A stretch of DNA of 5,661 nt from a virus (lineage: Duplodnaviria; Heunggongvirae; Uroviricota; Caudoviricetes), in IMG/VR virus record IMGVR_UViG_648276656_000007, positions 1 to 5,661 of that record, one strand, 5' to 3'. Numbering within the stretch: position 1 is the first letter of the stretch; each line of letters begins with the position of its first letter. Of the stretch, positions 321 to 5,661 are shown in pieces. The translations under genes were made by a program, and so were the position numbers. The notes under the pieces were generated by a model that worked only from the letters and a program-made list of their open reading frames with translations, searched no databases and was not told the DNA's origin.

Positions 321-326
321 AGGTGG
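321..326 (+). promoter_or_regulatory. Shine-Dalgarno sequence AGGTGG for the membrane-protein gene (ATG at 335).
   Basis: AGGTGG with 8-nt spacer to the ATG; read directly. Confidence 0.55.
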
Positions 327-334
327 TTATTTCC

Positions 335-712
335 ATGAAATCAATTTTAGAGGTTTTTACTCAAGGAAATACTAAAGAAAAACTGGCTGTTATCGCCGAT
401 CTCACAACCATTGCGGGAATATCGATTGCAACTATTATTGCTGGTTTGTTAACCCTAGTTGCAAAAACAGATAAACTAGATGTTGGAAATCTGTTTGGAG
501 TTGTCATAATATCTCTGCTCGGATTGGCTGGTGTTTGCTGTTTTGTGGCCTTATTTATTTGGGTTATAACCCAAATGTCTAAACCATGGGGAACACCTCG
601 GGGGGTTCAGCCCTTAGTTAAGTGTGCTATTTCCCTTATCTTTATCTGTATGTTTTTGCTGGCTGTCTTTACATTTTATGATTTTATTTCCTCGATGAGC
701 ATACGCTATTGA
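335..712 (+). CDS. Hypothetical small integral membrane protein, about 125 aa from ATG 335 (the ORF track's 129-aa version starts at GTG 323), with three predicted transmembrane helices; accessory (moron-like) gene.
   Basis: ATG at 335 is preceded by AGGTGG (321..326) at 8-nt spacing, which makes ATG 335 a better start than GTG 323. Three hydrophobic stretches of about 25 residues: LAVIADLTTIAGISIATIIAGLLTLVA (about nt 383..463), LFGVVIISLLGLAGVCCFVALFIWVI (about 491..568) and LVKCAISLIFICMFLLAVFTFYDFI (about 611..685). The TGA stop at 710..712 is followed 20 nt later by a perfect hairpin terminator. A 126-codon open frame in roughly 30-40% GC DNA is unlikely by chance. I do not recognise a named family. 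Confidence 0.65.
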   Translation: MKSILEVFTQGNTKEKLAVIADLTTIAGISIATIIAGLLTLVAKTDKLDVGNLFGVVIISLLGLAGVCCFVALFIWVITQMSKPWGTPRGVQPLVKCAISLIFICMFLLAVFTFYDFISSMSIRY

Positions 713-1680: not shown

Positions 1681-4440
1681 TTATACCTGCGCCACGTTAT
1701 ACCATGTCCCGTTAATGTATTTCTGAACCGGTCTGTAATATACACCACCAATGTTATCGGCAGAGTTTGAGCCGGTATCCTGAACAATAATGCCGGAATA
1801 TACACACCCGGACGGTGCCTGATGTGTCCATGTCATGCCATTGTTAGCAGGTTTGTATGTGGCAGCACCACCAAGCCGGATATCCCGGACATAGCGGGAA
1901 TCAAAGTTACCGTAATCCGAGGGATTAACACGCCCCGTAATATTTATGGTTTTATTACTTTGAATACTTCCCGAGACAAAGCGCATAACATGGACGCTAT
2001 TAGCATAAACATCCAGATTACCATCACCATTTTGTTTAAAGCCCGTGTCATTATCACCCAAAACAATCGAATTACCGCCAAGAGCACTGGATGTTCCTAT
2101 ACCCAGAGCACCATTCAATTGACCACCAGATAACGGCAGTGCACCGACATCTCCCGCTGTAGGTTTTCGCGTTGTGGTATAAAACTCAGACCAGTCAGCC
2201 TCGAATCCGTAACCGTCACGAGCAGAACGATAAAAAATACCGCCGTTCTTATAATTAACGCGGAACTGGGCGGCGGGACAACTTCCTTCACCGATATTAA
2301 AATGAAGAATTAACGTTGATGCCCCACCAGTAGTTGCGTTATAGGCTCCGCTACTCCAGCTCCACCCAACGGCTTTATCATTCGCAACGGTGTCTCCTGT
2401 TTTTCCTGAAGCAAATGCACCAATATTTTTCGGCGTCAGGTTAATATCTGATGTTCCATCAAACGAAACGTTATTAATTTTACGGGCTGTTTTCAGCTTT
2501 GTTGCTGTCGCCGCATTGCCGGACAGTTCACCAGAAAGGCCAGCACTGAATGTCTGTTTCGCGCCCCATGTCTGGGCTTCGTCAATGATTGGTACTCGTC
2601 TTGCTGTGATCGTGCGGCTTCCCGGATTTCCTGAAATACGCACCATAAAAAATCGGTAGTTCGCTTTACTTACAGTGCTGCGCCATACATGCATTGAGCG
2701 CCCCGTACCGGAATCATCACTCGGACCAACTGCGATGTTTATCAGGTTGCCATCAATGACGCCCCAGTCCATACCGTCGGGAATATTGGTCATATTATCC
2801 AGCCTAACGGTTATCAGACTGCCCGGCACAAAATCGTAGGTCTGCCAGTCCAGGTTGGTGAGCTTTGCCACAGCACCGCCGATACCCAGATTCAGGGGAA
2901 GTGAATACGAGGTGTAGACTTCCCGCCATTCGCTCCATGAGCTGCCGGTAAAGACGCGCTCAAAGGTGCGGCCTTTAAGGGTTGTACCTGTTCCGGCAGT
3001 TGTATAACGCTGCCATACATTAACACCATCAAACCGCCTCAACACTTCCAGAATGCCGAGTACAGTCACGCCGTTTCCGTCCAGTACTGGACCGTTGGTC
3101 GCTTTACCTGTAACGCTGTAAATACCTGGTGAGGTTACATCATTCAAATCACCTTCGTAATAACGACTCTCTGACTGATGACCGACTCTTAACCACGGTT
3201 CCCACTGCGGATTTGATGCATCCCAGCTTGCCGCAAGGCAGCGGACATACATATTTCCACGGCGAGTGGTATAACGTTGCGTTCTTCCATAATTCCCGCC
3301 TTCGAGGATCTCAAGCGTCCCCTGAGCAAAGCCACCTTCCTCTGGATAATTGAGTTCATATGAAGCTATAGCCGAGCTACTGTTACGCCATAAACCAAGA
3401 TGTTCGGCGGATCCAAGCGTATTCAGGTCTATAGTCGTACTCAAAGGGCGGGTAGCTGATTGAGTGTGACGCCATACGCCCCACGGACCATCAGTGCCAT
3501 TCCACTTATTGGCGAGTTTACGCATGTATACATTGCCGTCTCTTGTGGTAAAGCGTTGCGTACCTGCAAAATTGCCGGCAGCAAAAACCTCAAGCACACC
3601 GACAGCATTATCTTCCGGGAAGTTTTTCTCCAGTGTTGCGTTAGTTGAGGTAGCTTTAGACCAGATCCCTAGATAAGCCTTAACGGGACCAAATGTATTC
3701 AGGTCAGCATCAAGCGGCATTTCGCCATTGTTTTTCATAAACGTCAGGCTGGTAACGCCAACATTGTCCAGAAAAGCGCCCTTATCTGGAATATCGCCAC
3801 CGTTCTGGTCTTTCTGCATACGTTTTTCAGCATTGTCATAGGCTGCTTTTACTGCCTTTGGCGTTGCTGCCAGCTTTTCACTGGTGCTGTTTGTTGCACT
3901 GCTTAACTGAGTAAAACCTTTTTCTGTCAGCGTGGCGTCAGGATGGCGACGGGACTGCTCATGCTCTGCGATTTTGTCATCGACGTAATCCTGCGTCGCC
4001 ATCACTGTGCTGGCATCAATACTCAGTTCAACGGACGCCACGTTACTGACAATAATGACCATGCGGCAGGTCTGCGCACGTCCGGAGCCTTCAGCCAGTT
4101 CAGGCTTATAACTTTCTGCCATGTTAGCGACCGCAATCAGTGTTCCGGCATCGTCATACAGACCAAGTTCACGCATCCAGAAGCCGCCCACTTCTGGCGG
4201 TACAACCAGTTCAGCCACGATATAGTTTTTATTCTTATTATCCACGCTGACTTTATTCAGAGCGTGACGCCAGACCTCATGCACCAGTTTCGTCTGACCG
4301 GCATCCGGCACCGGCAATTTGCCATTACCGTCACCCACGGCCATTGCAGACAAGTTTACTTTTTTCCCGCCGGGGACAGTGGCGGCAGCCAGCTTTGCGG
4401 CTCCGGCAGTAGTGATAACGGTTTTAAATTTCGTGCTCAT
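1681..4440 (-). CDS. H: Tail fibre protein H (P2 gpH-like), 919 aa, mosaic: conserved N-terminal baseplate-attachment region, three tandem ~93-aa central repeats, conserved P2-H-type C-terminus.
   Basis: Uninterrupted 919-codon ORF. The N-terminus MSTKFKTVITTAGAAKLAAAT...GGFWMRELGLYDDAGTLIAVANMAESYKPELAEGSG and the C-terminus ...LGGNSIVLGDNDTGFKQNGDGNLDVYANS...NFDSRYV...RPVQKYINGTWYNVAQV match my recollection of P2 gpH. It sits between I and the chaperone G as in P2. The TAA stop at 1683..1681 is 3 nt before the G start. Confidence 0.93.
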   Translation of the reverse strand: MSTKFKTVITTAGAAKLAAATVPGGKKVNLSAMAVGDGNGKLPVPDAGQTKLVHEVWRHALNKVSVDNKNKNYIVAELVVPPEVGGFWMRELGLYDDAGTLIAVANMAESYKPELAEGSGRAQTCRMVIIVSNVASVELSIDASTVMATQDYVDDKIAEHEQSRRHPDATLTEKGFTQLSSATNSTSEKLAATPKAVKAAYDNAEKRMQKDQNGGDIPDKGAFLDNVGVTSLTFMKNNGEMPLDADLNTFGPVKAYLGIWSKATSTNATLEKNFPEDNAVGVLEVFAAGNFAGTQRFTTRDGNVYMRKLANKWNGTDGPWGVWRHTQSATRPLSTTIDLNTLGSAEHLGLWRNSSSAIASYELNYPEEGGFAQGTLEILEGGNYGRTQRYTTRRGNMYVRCLAASWDASNPQWEPWLRVGHQSESRYYEGDLNDVTSPGIYSVTGKATNGPVLDGNGVTVLGILEVLRRFDGVNVWQRYTTAGTGTTLKGRTFERVFTGSSWSEWREVYTSYSLPLNLGIGGAVAKLTNLDWQTYDFVPGSLITVRLDNMTNIPDGMDWGVIDGNLINIAVGPSDDSGTGRSMHVWRSTVSKANYRFFMVRISGNPGSRTITARRVPIIDEAQTWGAKQTFSAGLSGELSGNAATATKLKTARKINNVSFDGTSDINLTPKNIGAFASGKTGDTVANDKAVGWSWSSGAYNATTGGASTLILHFNIGEGSCPAAQFRVNYKNGGIFYRSARDGYGFEADWSEFYTTTRKPTAGDVGALPLSGGQLNGALGIGTSSALGGNSIVLGDNDTGFKQNGDGNLDVYANSVHVMRFVSGSIQSNKTINITGRVNPSDYGNFDSRYVRDIRLGGAATYKPANNGMTWTHQAPSGCVYSGIIVQDTGSNSADNIGGVYYRPVQKYINGTWYNVAQV
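2911..3708 (-). repeat. Three in-frame tandem coding repeats of about 93 aa (about 279 nt) inside tail fibre gene H (protein residues about 245-337, 338-430, 431-510).
   Basis: Each unit starts with DLN(T/D) and carries the motif G(V/T/I)LE(V/I)...G..(T/W)QR(F/Y)TT(R/A)..(N/T).Y.R....W.....W..W. Examples are GVLEVFAAGNFAGTQRFTTRDGNVYMRKLANKWNGTDGPWGVW, GTLEILEGGNYGRTQRYTTRRGNMYVRCLAASWDASNPQWEPW and GILEVLRRFDGVNVWQRYTTAGTGTTLKGRTFERVFTGSSWSEW. Residue-to-nucleotide mapping was checked at Y390 = 3273..3271. Repeats 1 and 2 are also recognisable at the DNA level. Confidence 0.7.
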
Positions 4441-4450
4441 TGTTTCTCAC

Positions 4451-4981
4451 TTATCCGGGATAAACAGTAATAACATCACCATCACAGACCACACCGCCTG
4501 TATACAGATAGCCGGGAATGTCCTGGATAATGTTCAGACCGATAAGGTGGCGACTTGCGGGTTTGGCATCGGCAATCAGCCGTTCCATTTCCAGATACAT
4601 TTCCTCTGTGATACCGCTTTCCAGCACGCCGATATCAAGGCGAAAGGTTCCGGCCGGGTCGTTTGTCTCCCACCATTCCTTTACATTAATGAGATAGCCG
4701 AGCGGCTCCACCACACGCCGGATTGCACCTATAGTGCCTTTATGACAGTGGATGAAATAGGCATCGCGGATAACGGCGCGTTTTGTCGCTTCCGGCCACT
4801 TTTCATCCCACCTGTCGACCGAAAACGCCCACGCCAGCCACGGCAGCAGATTTGCCGGACAGGTATCCGGGTTCCACAGCTCACGAATACTGACCGGCGT
4901 TTTTTCAATTTCCGCACAGGCTTTTGCGGCAGCAACTTCAAGCGGTGATGAGCCGGTCGGCAGCAGGCGCGAATCACTCAT
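4451..4981 (-). CDS. I: Tail/baseplate protein I (P2 gpI-like), 176 aa.
   Basis: ORF MSDSRLLPTGSSPLEVAAAK...DGDVITVYPG, 176 aa, which is the length I recall for P2 gpI. A GGAGG Shine-Dalgarno (complement of 4987..4991) sits 5 nt upstream of the ATG at 4981..4979. The start overlaps the J stop (ATGAGTGA), as expected for translationally coupled P2 late genes. The TAA stop at 4453..4451 lies 10 nt before the H start. Confidence 0.9.
   Translation of the reverse strand: MSDSRLLPTGSSPLEVAAAKACAEIEKTPVSIRELWNPDTCPANLLPWLAWAFSVDRWDEKWPEATKRAVIRDAYFIHCHKGTIGAIRRVVEPLGYLINVKEWWETNDPAGTFRLDIGVLESGITEEMYLEMERLIADAKPASRHLIGLNIIQDIPGYLYTGGVVCDGDVITVYPG
4974..4981 (-). promoter_or_regulatory. Overlapping stop/start junction ATGAGTGA between J (stop TGA) and I (start ATG), indicating translational coupling.
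   Basis: On the minus strand the I start ATG (4981..4979) and the J stop TGA (4976..4974) overlap in different frames; read directly. Confidence 0.6.
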
Positions 4982-5661
4982 CCGAGCCTCCGGTCACGAC
5001 GCGGTATTCGGTACAGAAAGACGCCTGCGTACTGTCAAGCACGATGTCAGCCAGCGGTGCAGCCAGTTCGACACGCTGCACGCCTTCCACATGCAAAGCG
5101 GCATAAATGGCAGACAGACGGATATCGCGCCCCAGCCGGTGCTGTGCCGTGATGTACGCTTCCAGTTTTTTCACGGCGGCAGCGCGGATGGGTTCGCTTT
5201 CGGGACCAGGGTAAAGGTAAAGCGTGGCGTTTATCTGGTATTCAACAATGGCGGCAGACTGCACGGTCACACGGTCTGCCACCGGTCTGACGTCCTCGCC
5301 ATTCAGGGCGTTACGCACCACGGCCAGCAGGTCTTCGGATGCGACACCGTTATTTTCACGTGACAGCACAGAGATGGTGACACAGGCCGGAGACGGACTG
5401 GTGACAGAGATATCCGCGACACGCCCGTCGGCACTGCGACCATGATACTGATAGGCTCCCACCGACCCGGCGACGCTTAAGCCTTCAAACGCCTGCTGAA
5501 TACGCAGACGATAATCGGTGTCAGACTCCATCACTGCCGGTGTCGGCGGGATAGTCGAATCATCTGCCGGGGTGATAATCAGGCGCGAGGTGTTGTAATT
5601 AGCACCAATCACATCAAGGTCATTACCGGCAGCACAGGCCAGCATCACCGCCCGTGCGGCC
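4974..5661 (-). CDS. J: Baseplate assembly protein J (P2 gpJ-like), 5'-partial. The reading frame stays open to the window edge at 5661, so the true start lies beyond the window; stop TGA at 4976..4974.
   Basis: Long minus-strand ORF (at least 228 codons) in GC-rich, coding-like sequence, directly upstream of and overlapping a gpI-like gene in the conserved P2 order J-I-H-G. The in-frame codons upstream of the track's first Met (5649..5660) have no stop. P2 gpJ is about 300 aa from memory, consistent with a truncated N-terminus. Family assignment is from gene order and recalled sequence character, not a search. Confidence 0.85.
   Translation of the reverse strand, partial: AARAVMLACAAGNDLDVIGANYNTSRLIITPADDSTIPPTPAVMESDTDYRLRIQQAFEGLSVAGSVGAYQYHGRSADGRVADISVTSPSPACVTISVLSRENNGVASEDLLAVVRNALNGEDVRPVADRVTVQSAAIVEYQINATLYLYPGPESEPIRAAAVKKLEAYITAQHRLGRDIRLSAIYAALHVEGVQRVELAAPLADIVLDSTQASFCTEYRVVTGGSDE

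Follow-up and report, generated by a model that had tools for sequence, protein, structure and literature searches.

Gene H and its neighbours

The window, the whole stretch of 5,661 nucleotides that was analysed, carries a tail fibre gene flanked by genes for a baseplate protein and a fibre chaperone:

1681..4440, minus strand: tail fibre gene H (ORF call), 919 aa
1150..1677, minus strand: gpG, tail fibre assembly chaperone (PF02413, E=7e-34), 75% identical to P2 gpG
4451..4981, minus strand: gpI baseplate protein (PF09684, E=2e-54), which provides synteny context

Pfam matches to the neighbours place H in the order J-I-H-G with a Tfa chaperone gene downstream, the arrangement that characterizes P2 gpH-type fibres. 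Within H itself, Pfam models matched at aa 1-151 (PF12571), aa 170-210 (PF03406) and aa 680-754 (gp37_C). The gene is 98% identical at the nucleotide level to H of Peduovirus P22H1 and P24C9 and of phages 10W and 11W. An ORF at window positions 323-712, a candidate cargo ORF, was without a match in PADLOC. H serves a P2-like (Peduovirus) E. coli prophage as its receptor-binding tail fibre, and is a long mosaic fibre of the kind originally reported from the Yersinia phage L-413C.

Mosaic structure relative to P2 gpH

The original prediction contrasted the 919 aa of H with about 670 aa for P2 gpH, and this was accurate (P2 gpH, NP_046775, has 669 aa). It further described P2-like ends of roughly 240 and 130 residues, separated by an inserted 279-aa repeat block. 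Both ends are indeed related to P2, with limits that differ from those expected:

3829..4440, minus strand: P2-type N-terminal tail-collar (baseplate attachment) region, aa 1-204; 86% identity to P2 gpH 1-204; PF12571, E=5e-58
1684..2133, minus strand: C-terminal region (last 150 aa, aa 770-919) related to P2 gpH 472-669; 39% identity, E=6e-32; weak PF20744 match

Because similarity to P2 stops at aa 204 and resumes at aa 770, the 565-aa centre of H (aa 205-769) takes the place of a 267-aa centre in P2 gpH (aa 205-471). No similarity was found between these two segments, and the central shafts are not collinear. The difference is thus a replacement rather than an insertion, and the H centre holds, in addition to the repeats, a linker, a domain designated X, a fibre repeat and a Mu S′-like segment. 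A gain of 298 aa in the centre and a loss of 48 aa in the C-terminal part give the net difference of 250 aa; that this lies close to the 279 aa of the repeat block is an arithmetic coincidence. H and P2 gpH share synteny, gpG and both termini, whereas P2 gpH contains no knob domain (see below), as the knob HMM found no match in it. Sequence comparison assigns H to the P2 H locus family, as an L-413C-type mosaic rather than the P2 prototype.

Three repeat units in the shaft

A self dot-plot of the H protein gave its strongest diagonals at offsets of 93 and 91, in agreement with the predicted period, and "DLN" anchors recur at aa 246, 338 and 431. The units are:

3439..3714, minus strand: knob unit 1 (U1, A-type), aa 243-334; 45% identical to U2 (z=31.6); z=7.8 against R2 pyocin Knob2; knob HMM envelope 244-332
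3160..3438, minus strand: knob unit 2 (U2, A-type), aa 335-427; similar to U1 and to R2 Knob2; envelope 336-426
2881..3159, minus strand: knob unit 3 (U3, B-type, divergent), aa 428-520; linked by hhalign of A- against B-type and by PHROG positions in common with U1; envelope 429-513

The block spans window positions 2881-3714 (aa 243-520), slightly wider than the 2911-3708 (aa 245-510) originally proposed. Self-blastp of whole H returned the identity match alone, and the units were compared instead by segment-wise Smith-Waterman alignment with shuffled controls. U1 and U2 scored 182 against 26.7 +/- 4.9 for shuffles, over 77 columns. Pairwise similarity of U3 was weak (z=3.5 to U1, z=2.4 to U2), and an HMM built from the two sequences U1 and U2 detected it marginally (conditional E=0.02). 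The prediction of three consecutive, clearly related units of about 93 aa therefore holds for their number and for the first two, and fails for U3 at the level of pairwise comparison.

The third unit was connected to the others by profiles built from the units of 9-14 homologues. In hhalign, U1/U2-type and U3-type profiles aligned in register over 71 columns (probability 88%, E=3e-6), and U1 and U3 matched identical positions of phrog_3971 and phrog_6614. The units have in common the pattern D-L-N...N-x-P...G-x-L-E-V...Q-R-Y-T-T...R...W-x-x-W, which holds the invariant residues R65, W78 and W81 (unit alignment numbering), and their predicted strand patterns are identical. By these tests U3 is the same domain as U1 and U2, although as a sequence it is related to them at profile level only.

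The repeat does not extend to the DNA. TRF found none in H when run on the window, and the best blastn match between U1 and U2 covered 51 nt at 72.5% identity; a DNA-level repeat was rejected. With almost no DNA identity between them, the units offer no substrate for unequal crossing-over.

The units are pyocin knob domains

No Pfam or NCBIfam model covered H aa 243-625, and phmmer of aa 236-626 (knobs plus X) as a single sequence against the PDB found no chain, Mu included; only the unit profile reached pyocin knobs. A profile of 14 units aligned with chain residues 138-211 of the R2 pyocin fibre 6cl6 (E=1.3e-9), a stretch that an offset estimate assigns to Knob2, and more weakly with residues 64-120 in Knob1. 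The profile also matched the R1 fibre (6cl5), the F2-pyocin side fibre (25ve) and Pa193 gp47. Compared individually with R2 Knob2, U1 and U2 gave z=7-8 and U3 gave z=0.7, so that U3 belongs to the knob family through the profile only. Homologues are named "pyocin knob domain-containing protein" by NCBI, and the unit profile finds 8188 cluster representatives.

The weak pairwise scores of U3 (z=2.4-3.5) are what would be expected if the units were no true repeat, resembling each other by chance in a compositionally biased, beta-rich fibre. Given the U1/U2 score, the profile-profile alignment, the match to solved knobs and the thousands of family members, we give this explanation almost no weight.

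The units also lie where knobs would be expected, in tandem in the shaft, with the PF12571 collar on one side and the distal gp37-like modules on the other. A monomer model of moderate confidence (mean pLDDT 68) predicts the fold of the solved knobs, in which long loops connect the 5-6 strands of an antiparallel sheet. The H shaft contains three pyocin knob domains in a row.

Among the closest known parallels are Knob1 and Knob2 of the P. aeruginosa R1 and R2 pyocins (PDB 6CL5, 6CL6, 6CU2; Buth et al. 2018). Like H, these fibres belong to P2-type contractile tails, carry their knobs in tandem in the shaft, are followed by a chaperone gene, and vary mainly in the knobs and C-terminal domain. 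They differ in having two knobs of about 83 aa, whereas H has three (perhaps four) of about 93 aa, and in continuing into an iron-containing shaft and lectin-like foot, where H continues into domain X and Mu/T4-type distal modules.

Modules flanking the knobs

The remainder of the fibre is composed of the following parts:

3742..3939, minus strand: fibre repeat and linker common to phage Mu fibre S, aa 168-233; phmmer against PDB, 5yvq and 8ju3 residues 110-176, E about 1e-14
2566..2880, minus strand: domain X, a compact beta domain of 105 aa, aa 521-625; located after the two or three knobs of most homologues
2428..2565, minus strand: "GNAATATKL...FDG" fibre repeat segment, aa 626-671; repeated in the fibres P0044 and P0069; 98-100% conserved among relatives
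2137..2427, minus strand: Mu S′-like / T4 gp37_C-like segment, aa 672-768; 8ju3 residues 321-417, 165.6 bits; PF12604
1684..1890, minus strand: distal tip, aa 851-919; swapped among close relatives; matches the C-termini of 9cuy_c and 5yvq

Phage Mu S/S′ (5YVQ, 8JU3) thus matches H strongly at aa 168-233 (56 bits) and aa 672-768 (166 bits) and has a related C-terminal tip, but shows no match to the knob and X region and has a different baseplate-attachment domain. As for domain X, hhalign rejected it as a knob at the sequence level and Foldseek gave no significant match; it is possibly a cryptic fourth knob-like domain.

Knob number is fixed in the H lineage

The knob cassette of H occurs in 334 of 5426 complete E. 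coli genomes (6%). Every one of the 36 complete close relatives in IMG/VR, like every sequenced Peduovirus long-H gene, carries three knobs, no more and no fewer, at positions matching those in H. Within this lineage, knob number is fixed at three. Architectures were taken from a search of representatives and from IMG/VR loci, as the homologue search gave mostly short partial proteins.

The lineage includes gpH of the Yersinia phage L-413C (913 aa, NC_004745), 76% identical to H over its full length. Its gene and the 919-aa H genes of Peduovirus P22H1 and P24C9 and of Escherichia phages 10W, 11W and PhiR44 occupy the same place in J-I-H-G, with the domain order of H and three knobs at the same positions. 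Between L-413C and H, identity is 98-99% at aa 1-151 and 626-850, while the knobs (48%, 66% and 47%), X (71%) and tip (46%) represent different alleles. The L-413C protein binds Y. pestis cells (PMC7460101), and that paper quotes Garcia et al. 2008 as describing it as a four-part mosaic relative to P2.

Beyond this lineage knob number varies, with 2-11 copies per protein among the top 150 members of the unit-profile family and 0 to 3 among P2-type H genes. Such variation, together with the similarity between 250 and 279 aa, is what a recent tandem triplication inserted into a P2-collinear H, giving an unstable array, would lead one to expect. We consider that origin very improbable. At the DNA level the units have next to nothing in common; as proteins, U1 and U2 reach only 45% identity and U3 is related only at profile level; and the whole centre is non-P2. 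H genes with 0, 1 or 2 knobs have them at different positions and belong to a group whose N-terminus is less similar to that of our H, and the 36 close relatives are uniform. Furthermore, the A-A-B-X cassette is also found in the non-P2 fibres P0044, P0048, P0059 and P0047; P0075 is a P2-type fibre with two knobs, and P0069 has three after a P2-type centre. The same A-A-B order in unrelated fibre backbones argues that the duplication is ancient.

Exchange of knob and tip alleles

Comparison of close relatives revealed blocks of divergence that coincide with single modules. PhiR44_1 and YpM_22 differ from H in U3 only (75-76% aa identity), and 569R9 differs in U1 and U2 only (78-81%). The divergent blocks, aa 432-529 and 257-429, end near unit borders, and aa 626-850 stay 98-100% identical in the relatives with swapped knobs. 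The tip falls to 44-46% in relatives in which aa 626-850 are 98-100% identical; a divergent distal region had been correctly foreseen. The swapped knobs had dS of 1.0-1.7 and dN/dS of 0.08-0.18, whereas dS in the neighbouring domains was 0.0-0.2, rising to 0.39 at aa 152-242. L-413C was left out of conclusions on dN/dS, as indels put its codon comparison out of register.

Knob alleles, and not knob number, vary, and they are swapped by recombination at knob borders. The proposal that tandem beta-rich modules are recombination hot spots was therefore right about recombination and wrong about its product, unit number being unchanged. Low dN/dS in the swapped knobs fits old alleles under purifying selection and does not by itself point to selection for new specificities. 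Variation lay somewhat more often outside predicted strands than within them (OR 1.9, p=0.013), which bears on a binding role only indirectly, as the same would be expected of any globular domain.

What the knobs may do

Taken together, these data are probably best accounted for by an H of L-413C type that carries an old, portable three-knob cassette, fixed in number, exchanging alleles, and with a presumed stiffening and glycan-binding role. Two A-type knobs from an ancient duplication and one divergent B-type knob form the cassette, and X comes after it. If the solved R1/R2 pyocin fibres are a guide, each knob would fold as a five- or six-stranded antiparallel sheet, and in the homotrimer the sheets would pack round the three-fold axis with loops pointing outward. 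The baseplate-attachment domain and the distal tip would then be separated by three (perhaps four) globular beads. Whole alleles of single knobs are exchanged between prophages by homologous recombination in conserved flanks. The knobs may stiffen the trimer and help to nucleate it, and the loops that they turn outward may make lateral, low-affinity contacts with glycans (LPS); with the separately exchangeable tip (aa 851-919), such contacts would determine specificity and control how the fibre is oriented at the cell surface. The sequence data show what the domains are, how they are arranged, that the gene is a mosaic and that alleles are exchanged; the geometry of the trimer and any part in binding are inferred.

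A less probable but substantial alternative is that the knobs are purely architectural, serving as folding nuclei and as spacers that lengthen and stiffen the fibre, with specificity residing only in the tip and chaperone and allele diversity reflecting neutral hitch-hiking. Because of the double hydrophobic core of knobs, Buth et al. suggest that they function in folding, and the low dN/dS in swapped knobs is compatible with this alternative. The tip is swapped independently, and in the P2-like phage P88 host range was mapped to the distal C-terminal hypervariable region (PMC5285337). In addition, on Y. pestis both L-413C, with knobs, and P2 vir1, with none, depend on the terminal GlcNAc of the LPS core (PMC3182234), which indicates that this receptor class can be used without knobs. 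For the same reason, the altered host range relative to P2 that had been suggested for H does not imply a change of receptor class. Hitch-hiking, however, does not readily explain why divergent blocks match knob borders next to a segment (aa 626-850) that is 98-100% identical with dS near 0, a pattern that suggests selective retention of knob alleles. In R-pyocins, moreover, diversity is greatest in Knob2 and the C-terminal domain, and Knob2 binds ligand mimics (Buth et al. 2018); a knob-like prism of the K1F endosialidase binds sialic acid. We therefore favour the reading in which the knobs, by analogy with these proteins, may contribute to glycan binding or fibre orientation.

A more far-reaching version, which we regard as unlikely though worth stating, would treat X as a diverged knob and each of four beads as an exchangeable glycan-recognition unit, with U1+U2, U3 and the tip forming a combinatorial specificity code reshuffled at knob borders. 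If true, the host range of long-H Peduoviruses would be set by several lateral sites in addition to the tip.

The three-knob finding is real but ordinary, since the knob family is known and widespread, this type of mosaic fibre was already described, and the cassette is present in 6% of complete E. coli genomes. It brings little fundamental novelty: the family has solved structures and an NCBI name, the mosaic was published for L-413C, and the gene is nearly identical to those of sequenced phages. The per-knob allele map (U1+U2, U3, tip) nonetheless supplies clean natural chimeras with which the part played by shaft knobs in P2-like host range can be tested, a question relevant to the engineering of tailocins and P2-based delivery particles and to diagnostic phages for Y. 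pestis.

Tail fibre H and its three central units

The window comes from a P2-like (Peduovirus) E. coli prophage; its tail genes and the modules of the fibre protein H are listed below.

Tail genes of the window and modules of H (window positions, or aa of H)
4974-5648, minus: baseplate J, partial
4451-4981, minus: I
1681-4440, minus: tail fibre H, 919 aa
1150-1677, minus: fibre-assembly chaperone G
aa 168-233 (3742-3939), minus: Mu S-like linker
2881-3714, minus: block of three knobs (U1-U3), between the linker and X
aa 243-334, minus: U1
aa 335-427, minus: U2
aa 428-520, minus: U3
aa 521-625, minus: domain X, 105 aa
aa 626-671, minus: 'GNAATATKL' fibre repeat
aa 672-768 (2137-2427), minus: Mu S'/gp37_C-like segment

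Sequenced Peduoviruses match the entire window at 95-97% identity across 85% of its length, and H alone is 98% identical in nucleotides to its counterparts in Peduovirus P22H1 and P24C9 and in Escherichia phages 10W and 11W. A search of 5426 complete E. coli genomes found the centre of H, at a minimum coverage of 80%, in 334; this type of fibre has been described before and sequenced widely. The knob cassette also occurs on E. coli plasmids, which account for 34 of its 440 matches (e.g. NZ_CP109878.1, 44399-45568, a 49-kb record) and may be phage-plasmids with the same fibre module.

Separately, positions 1-1150 hold AT-rich cargo (GC 0.31-0.40 vs. about 0.5 for tail genes) between gpG and the tail sheath gene, the site of the P2 fun(Z) moron. 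The full region was found in only 26 of 5426 complete E. coli genomes. Its single ORF (plus strand, 323/335-712, 125-129 aa, three hydrophobic segments; hypothetical protein WP_000836023.1 in RefSeq) had no significant Pfam match (weak DUF418, E=0.058, below cut-off) and no PADLOC match, and could encode a lysogenic-conversion or superinfection-exclusion membrane protein.

The original prediction placed three consecutive, clearly related ~93-aa units at 2911-3708, corresponding to aa 245-510 of H. A BLOSUM62 self dot-plot gave offsets of 93 and 91 as the top two off-diagonals, and a DLN motif recurs at aa 246, 338 and 431. U1 and U2 are clearly related (45% identity, local score 182 vs. 26.7 +/- 4.9 for shuffles, z=31.6), while U3 is only weakly similar to the other two (z=3.5 and 2.4) and joins them at the profile level: U1 and U3 match identical profile positions in two PHROG families, and hhalign of U1/U2-type against U3-type units from homologues gave 88% probability (E=3e-6, in register, 71 columns). 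A joint alignment left R, W and W invariant within the pattern D-L-N...N-x-P...G-x-L-E-V...Q-R-Y-T-T...R...W-x-x-W. By these sequence comparisons U3 is the same domain as U1 and U2, although its weak pairwise scores make 'clearly related' too strong a description. No repeat among the units was present in the DNA of the window, and the repeat is therefore real, ancient and confined to the protein level.

The units are pyocin knobs

Pfam and NCBIfam hold no model for the three units, although partial homologues are annotated at NCBI as 'pyocin knob domain-containing protein'. Searching all PDB sequences with a profile of 14 units identified the R2 pyocin fibre PA0620 (6cl6, E=1.3e-9), with a strong match at chain residues 138-211 (estimated as Knob2) and a weaker one at 64-120 (estimated as Knob1); the R1 fibre, an F2-pyocin side fibre and Pa193 gp47 also matched. 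U1-U3 belong to a known, structurally solved family of very large size: 8188 representatives of 50% identity clusters match at E<=1e-3, and 1271 of them reach E<=1e-10. The top 150 of the 8188, by a total-score ranking that favours many copies, carry 2-11 per protein, most often 3-5.

A composite centre replaces that of P2 gpH

P2-type ends were expected to span roughly 240 and 130 residues, with the 279 aa of repeats inserted between them. The ends are indeed P2-like, with different boundaries: the 669-aa P2 gpH aligns only with H aa 1-204 (86% identity) and 770-919 (P2 472-669, 39% identity; 48 aa shorter in H). The 565 aa of H 205-769 thus stand in place of the 267 aa of P2 205-471 rather than interrupting them, and it is a coincidence that 279 aa comes close to the 250-aa difference in length. 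The knob search found no knob in P2 gpH. The replaced centre is composed of several module types, two of them strongly similar to Mu fibre S/S', which makes H a mixture of P2-, Mu- and T4 gp37-type modules. As quoted in PMC7460101, Garcia et al. (2008) described L-413C gpH as a four-part mosaic in which the N-terminal 207 and C-terminal 137 aa are P2-like and the middle is not. The mosaic of H is the same one, and L-413C gpH is collinear with H (76% identity).

Domain X follows the knobs in most homologues. Its model is confident (pLDDT about 90) and Foldseek gave a high probability with a non-significant E; profile-profile comparison with knob alignments gave no match. X is possibly a fourth knob-like bead whose sequence has diverged.

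Knob number changes by module replacement

Distant relatives (Citrobacter, Leclercia, metagenomic) carry one A-type (U1/U2-like) and one B-type (U3-like) knob, then X. The A-A-B-X order of H recurs in unrelated fibre backbones (P0044, P0048, P0059, P0047); in addition, P0069 has the A-A-B triplet without X after a P2-type centre, and the P2-type fibre P0075 carries two knobs. The spread of these arrangements implies that the A-type duplication is old and that the cassette is portable.

Among 72 complete IMG/VR H ORFs that share at least 82% identity with H in the N-terminal domain, 30 had no knob, five had one, one had two and 36 had three. In all 36 the knobs occupy the same positions (244-332, 336-426, 429-515), and total length (870-928 aa) varies only through downstream modules. 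Lineages therefore differ in unit number because whole modules were replaced, and not through the array expansion or contraction originally envisaged.

Shorter P2-type H genes with one or two knobs lie at six IMG/VR loci (L054, L068, L076, L079, L085, L057). Those of 608-621 aa have a single knob at about aa 329-400 and one of 700 aa has two (333-414 and 434-514), so the P2 H backbone has acquired knobs at more than one site.

Alleles are exchanged knob by knob

The prediction of a mosaic with tandem beta-rich modules and active recombination was borne out. Measured against H, PhiR44_1 and YpM_22 differ essentially in U3 only (75-76% aa identity), 569R9 in U1 and U2 (78-81%), and P24B2 in all three knobs. 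L-413C and P24A7b alleles are more divergent (U1 48%, U2 66%, U3 47%, X 70-71%). Residues 626-850 are 98-100% identical in these relatives except P24A7b, whose distal half also differs. Divergent blocks (aa 432-529 and 257-429) end near unit borders. Swapped knobs have a dS of about 1.0-1.7 and a dN/dS of 0.08-0.18, whereas dS in neighbouring domains is 0.0-0.2 (reaching 0.39 in aa 152-242); these knobs are old alleles brought in by recombination, not products of in-situ positive selection.

The distal tip (aa 851-919, window 1684-1890) is a module exchanged independently: relatives with 98-100% identity over the 225 aa before it have 44-46% in the tip itself. Among solved structures the tip best matches the C-terminus of a 'short tail fiber' (9cuy_c, 68.8 bits), then Mu S.

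Possible roles of the knobs

By analogy with pyocin structures, each knob's sheet would be buried on the three-fold axis of a homotrimer with its loops exposed, forming beads along the shaft. The knobs would assist nucleation of trimer folding and, with the distal domain, would contact surface glycans at separate points in space and so orient the fibre. We propose such lateral binding tentatively, because variation is found in the knobs and tip, as it is in the knobs and C-terminal domain of R-pyocins (Buth et al. 2018); a knob-like prism in K1F endosialidase also binds sialic acid (Buth et al. 2018). The main alternative, a purely architectural role, is favoured by the low dN/dS of the knobs, by the shared need of P2 vir1, which lacks knobs, and L-413C, which has three, for the terminal GlcNAc of the Y. 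pestis LPS core (PMC3182234), and by the mapping of P2-like P88 host range to a distal C-terminal hypervariable region (PMC5285337). Variation was modestly enriched outside predicted strands (OR 1.9, p=0.013), which agrees with exposed loops and suits either explanation.

We are confident in the structural and evolutionary description of H, in which domain identity, architecture, mosaic boundaries and knob-wise allele exchange are observed directly. Its novelty is mild and lies in the knob-by-knob allele map and a possible cryptic fourth knob.
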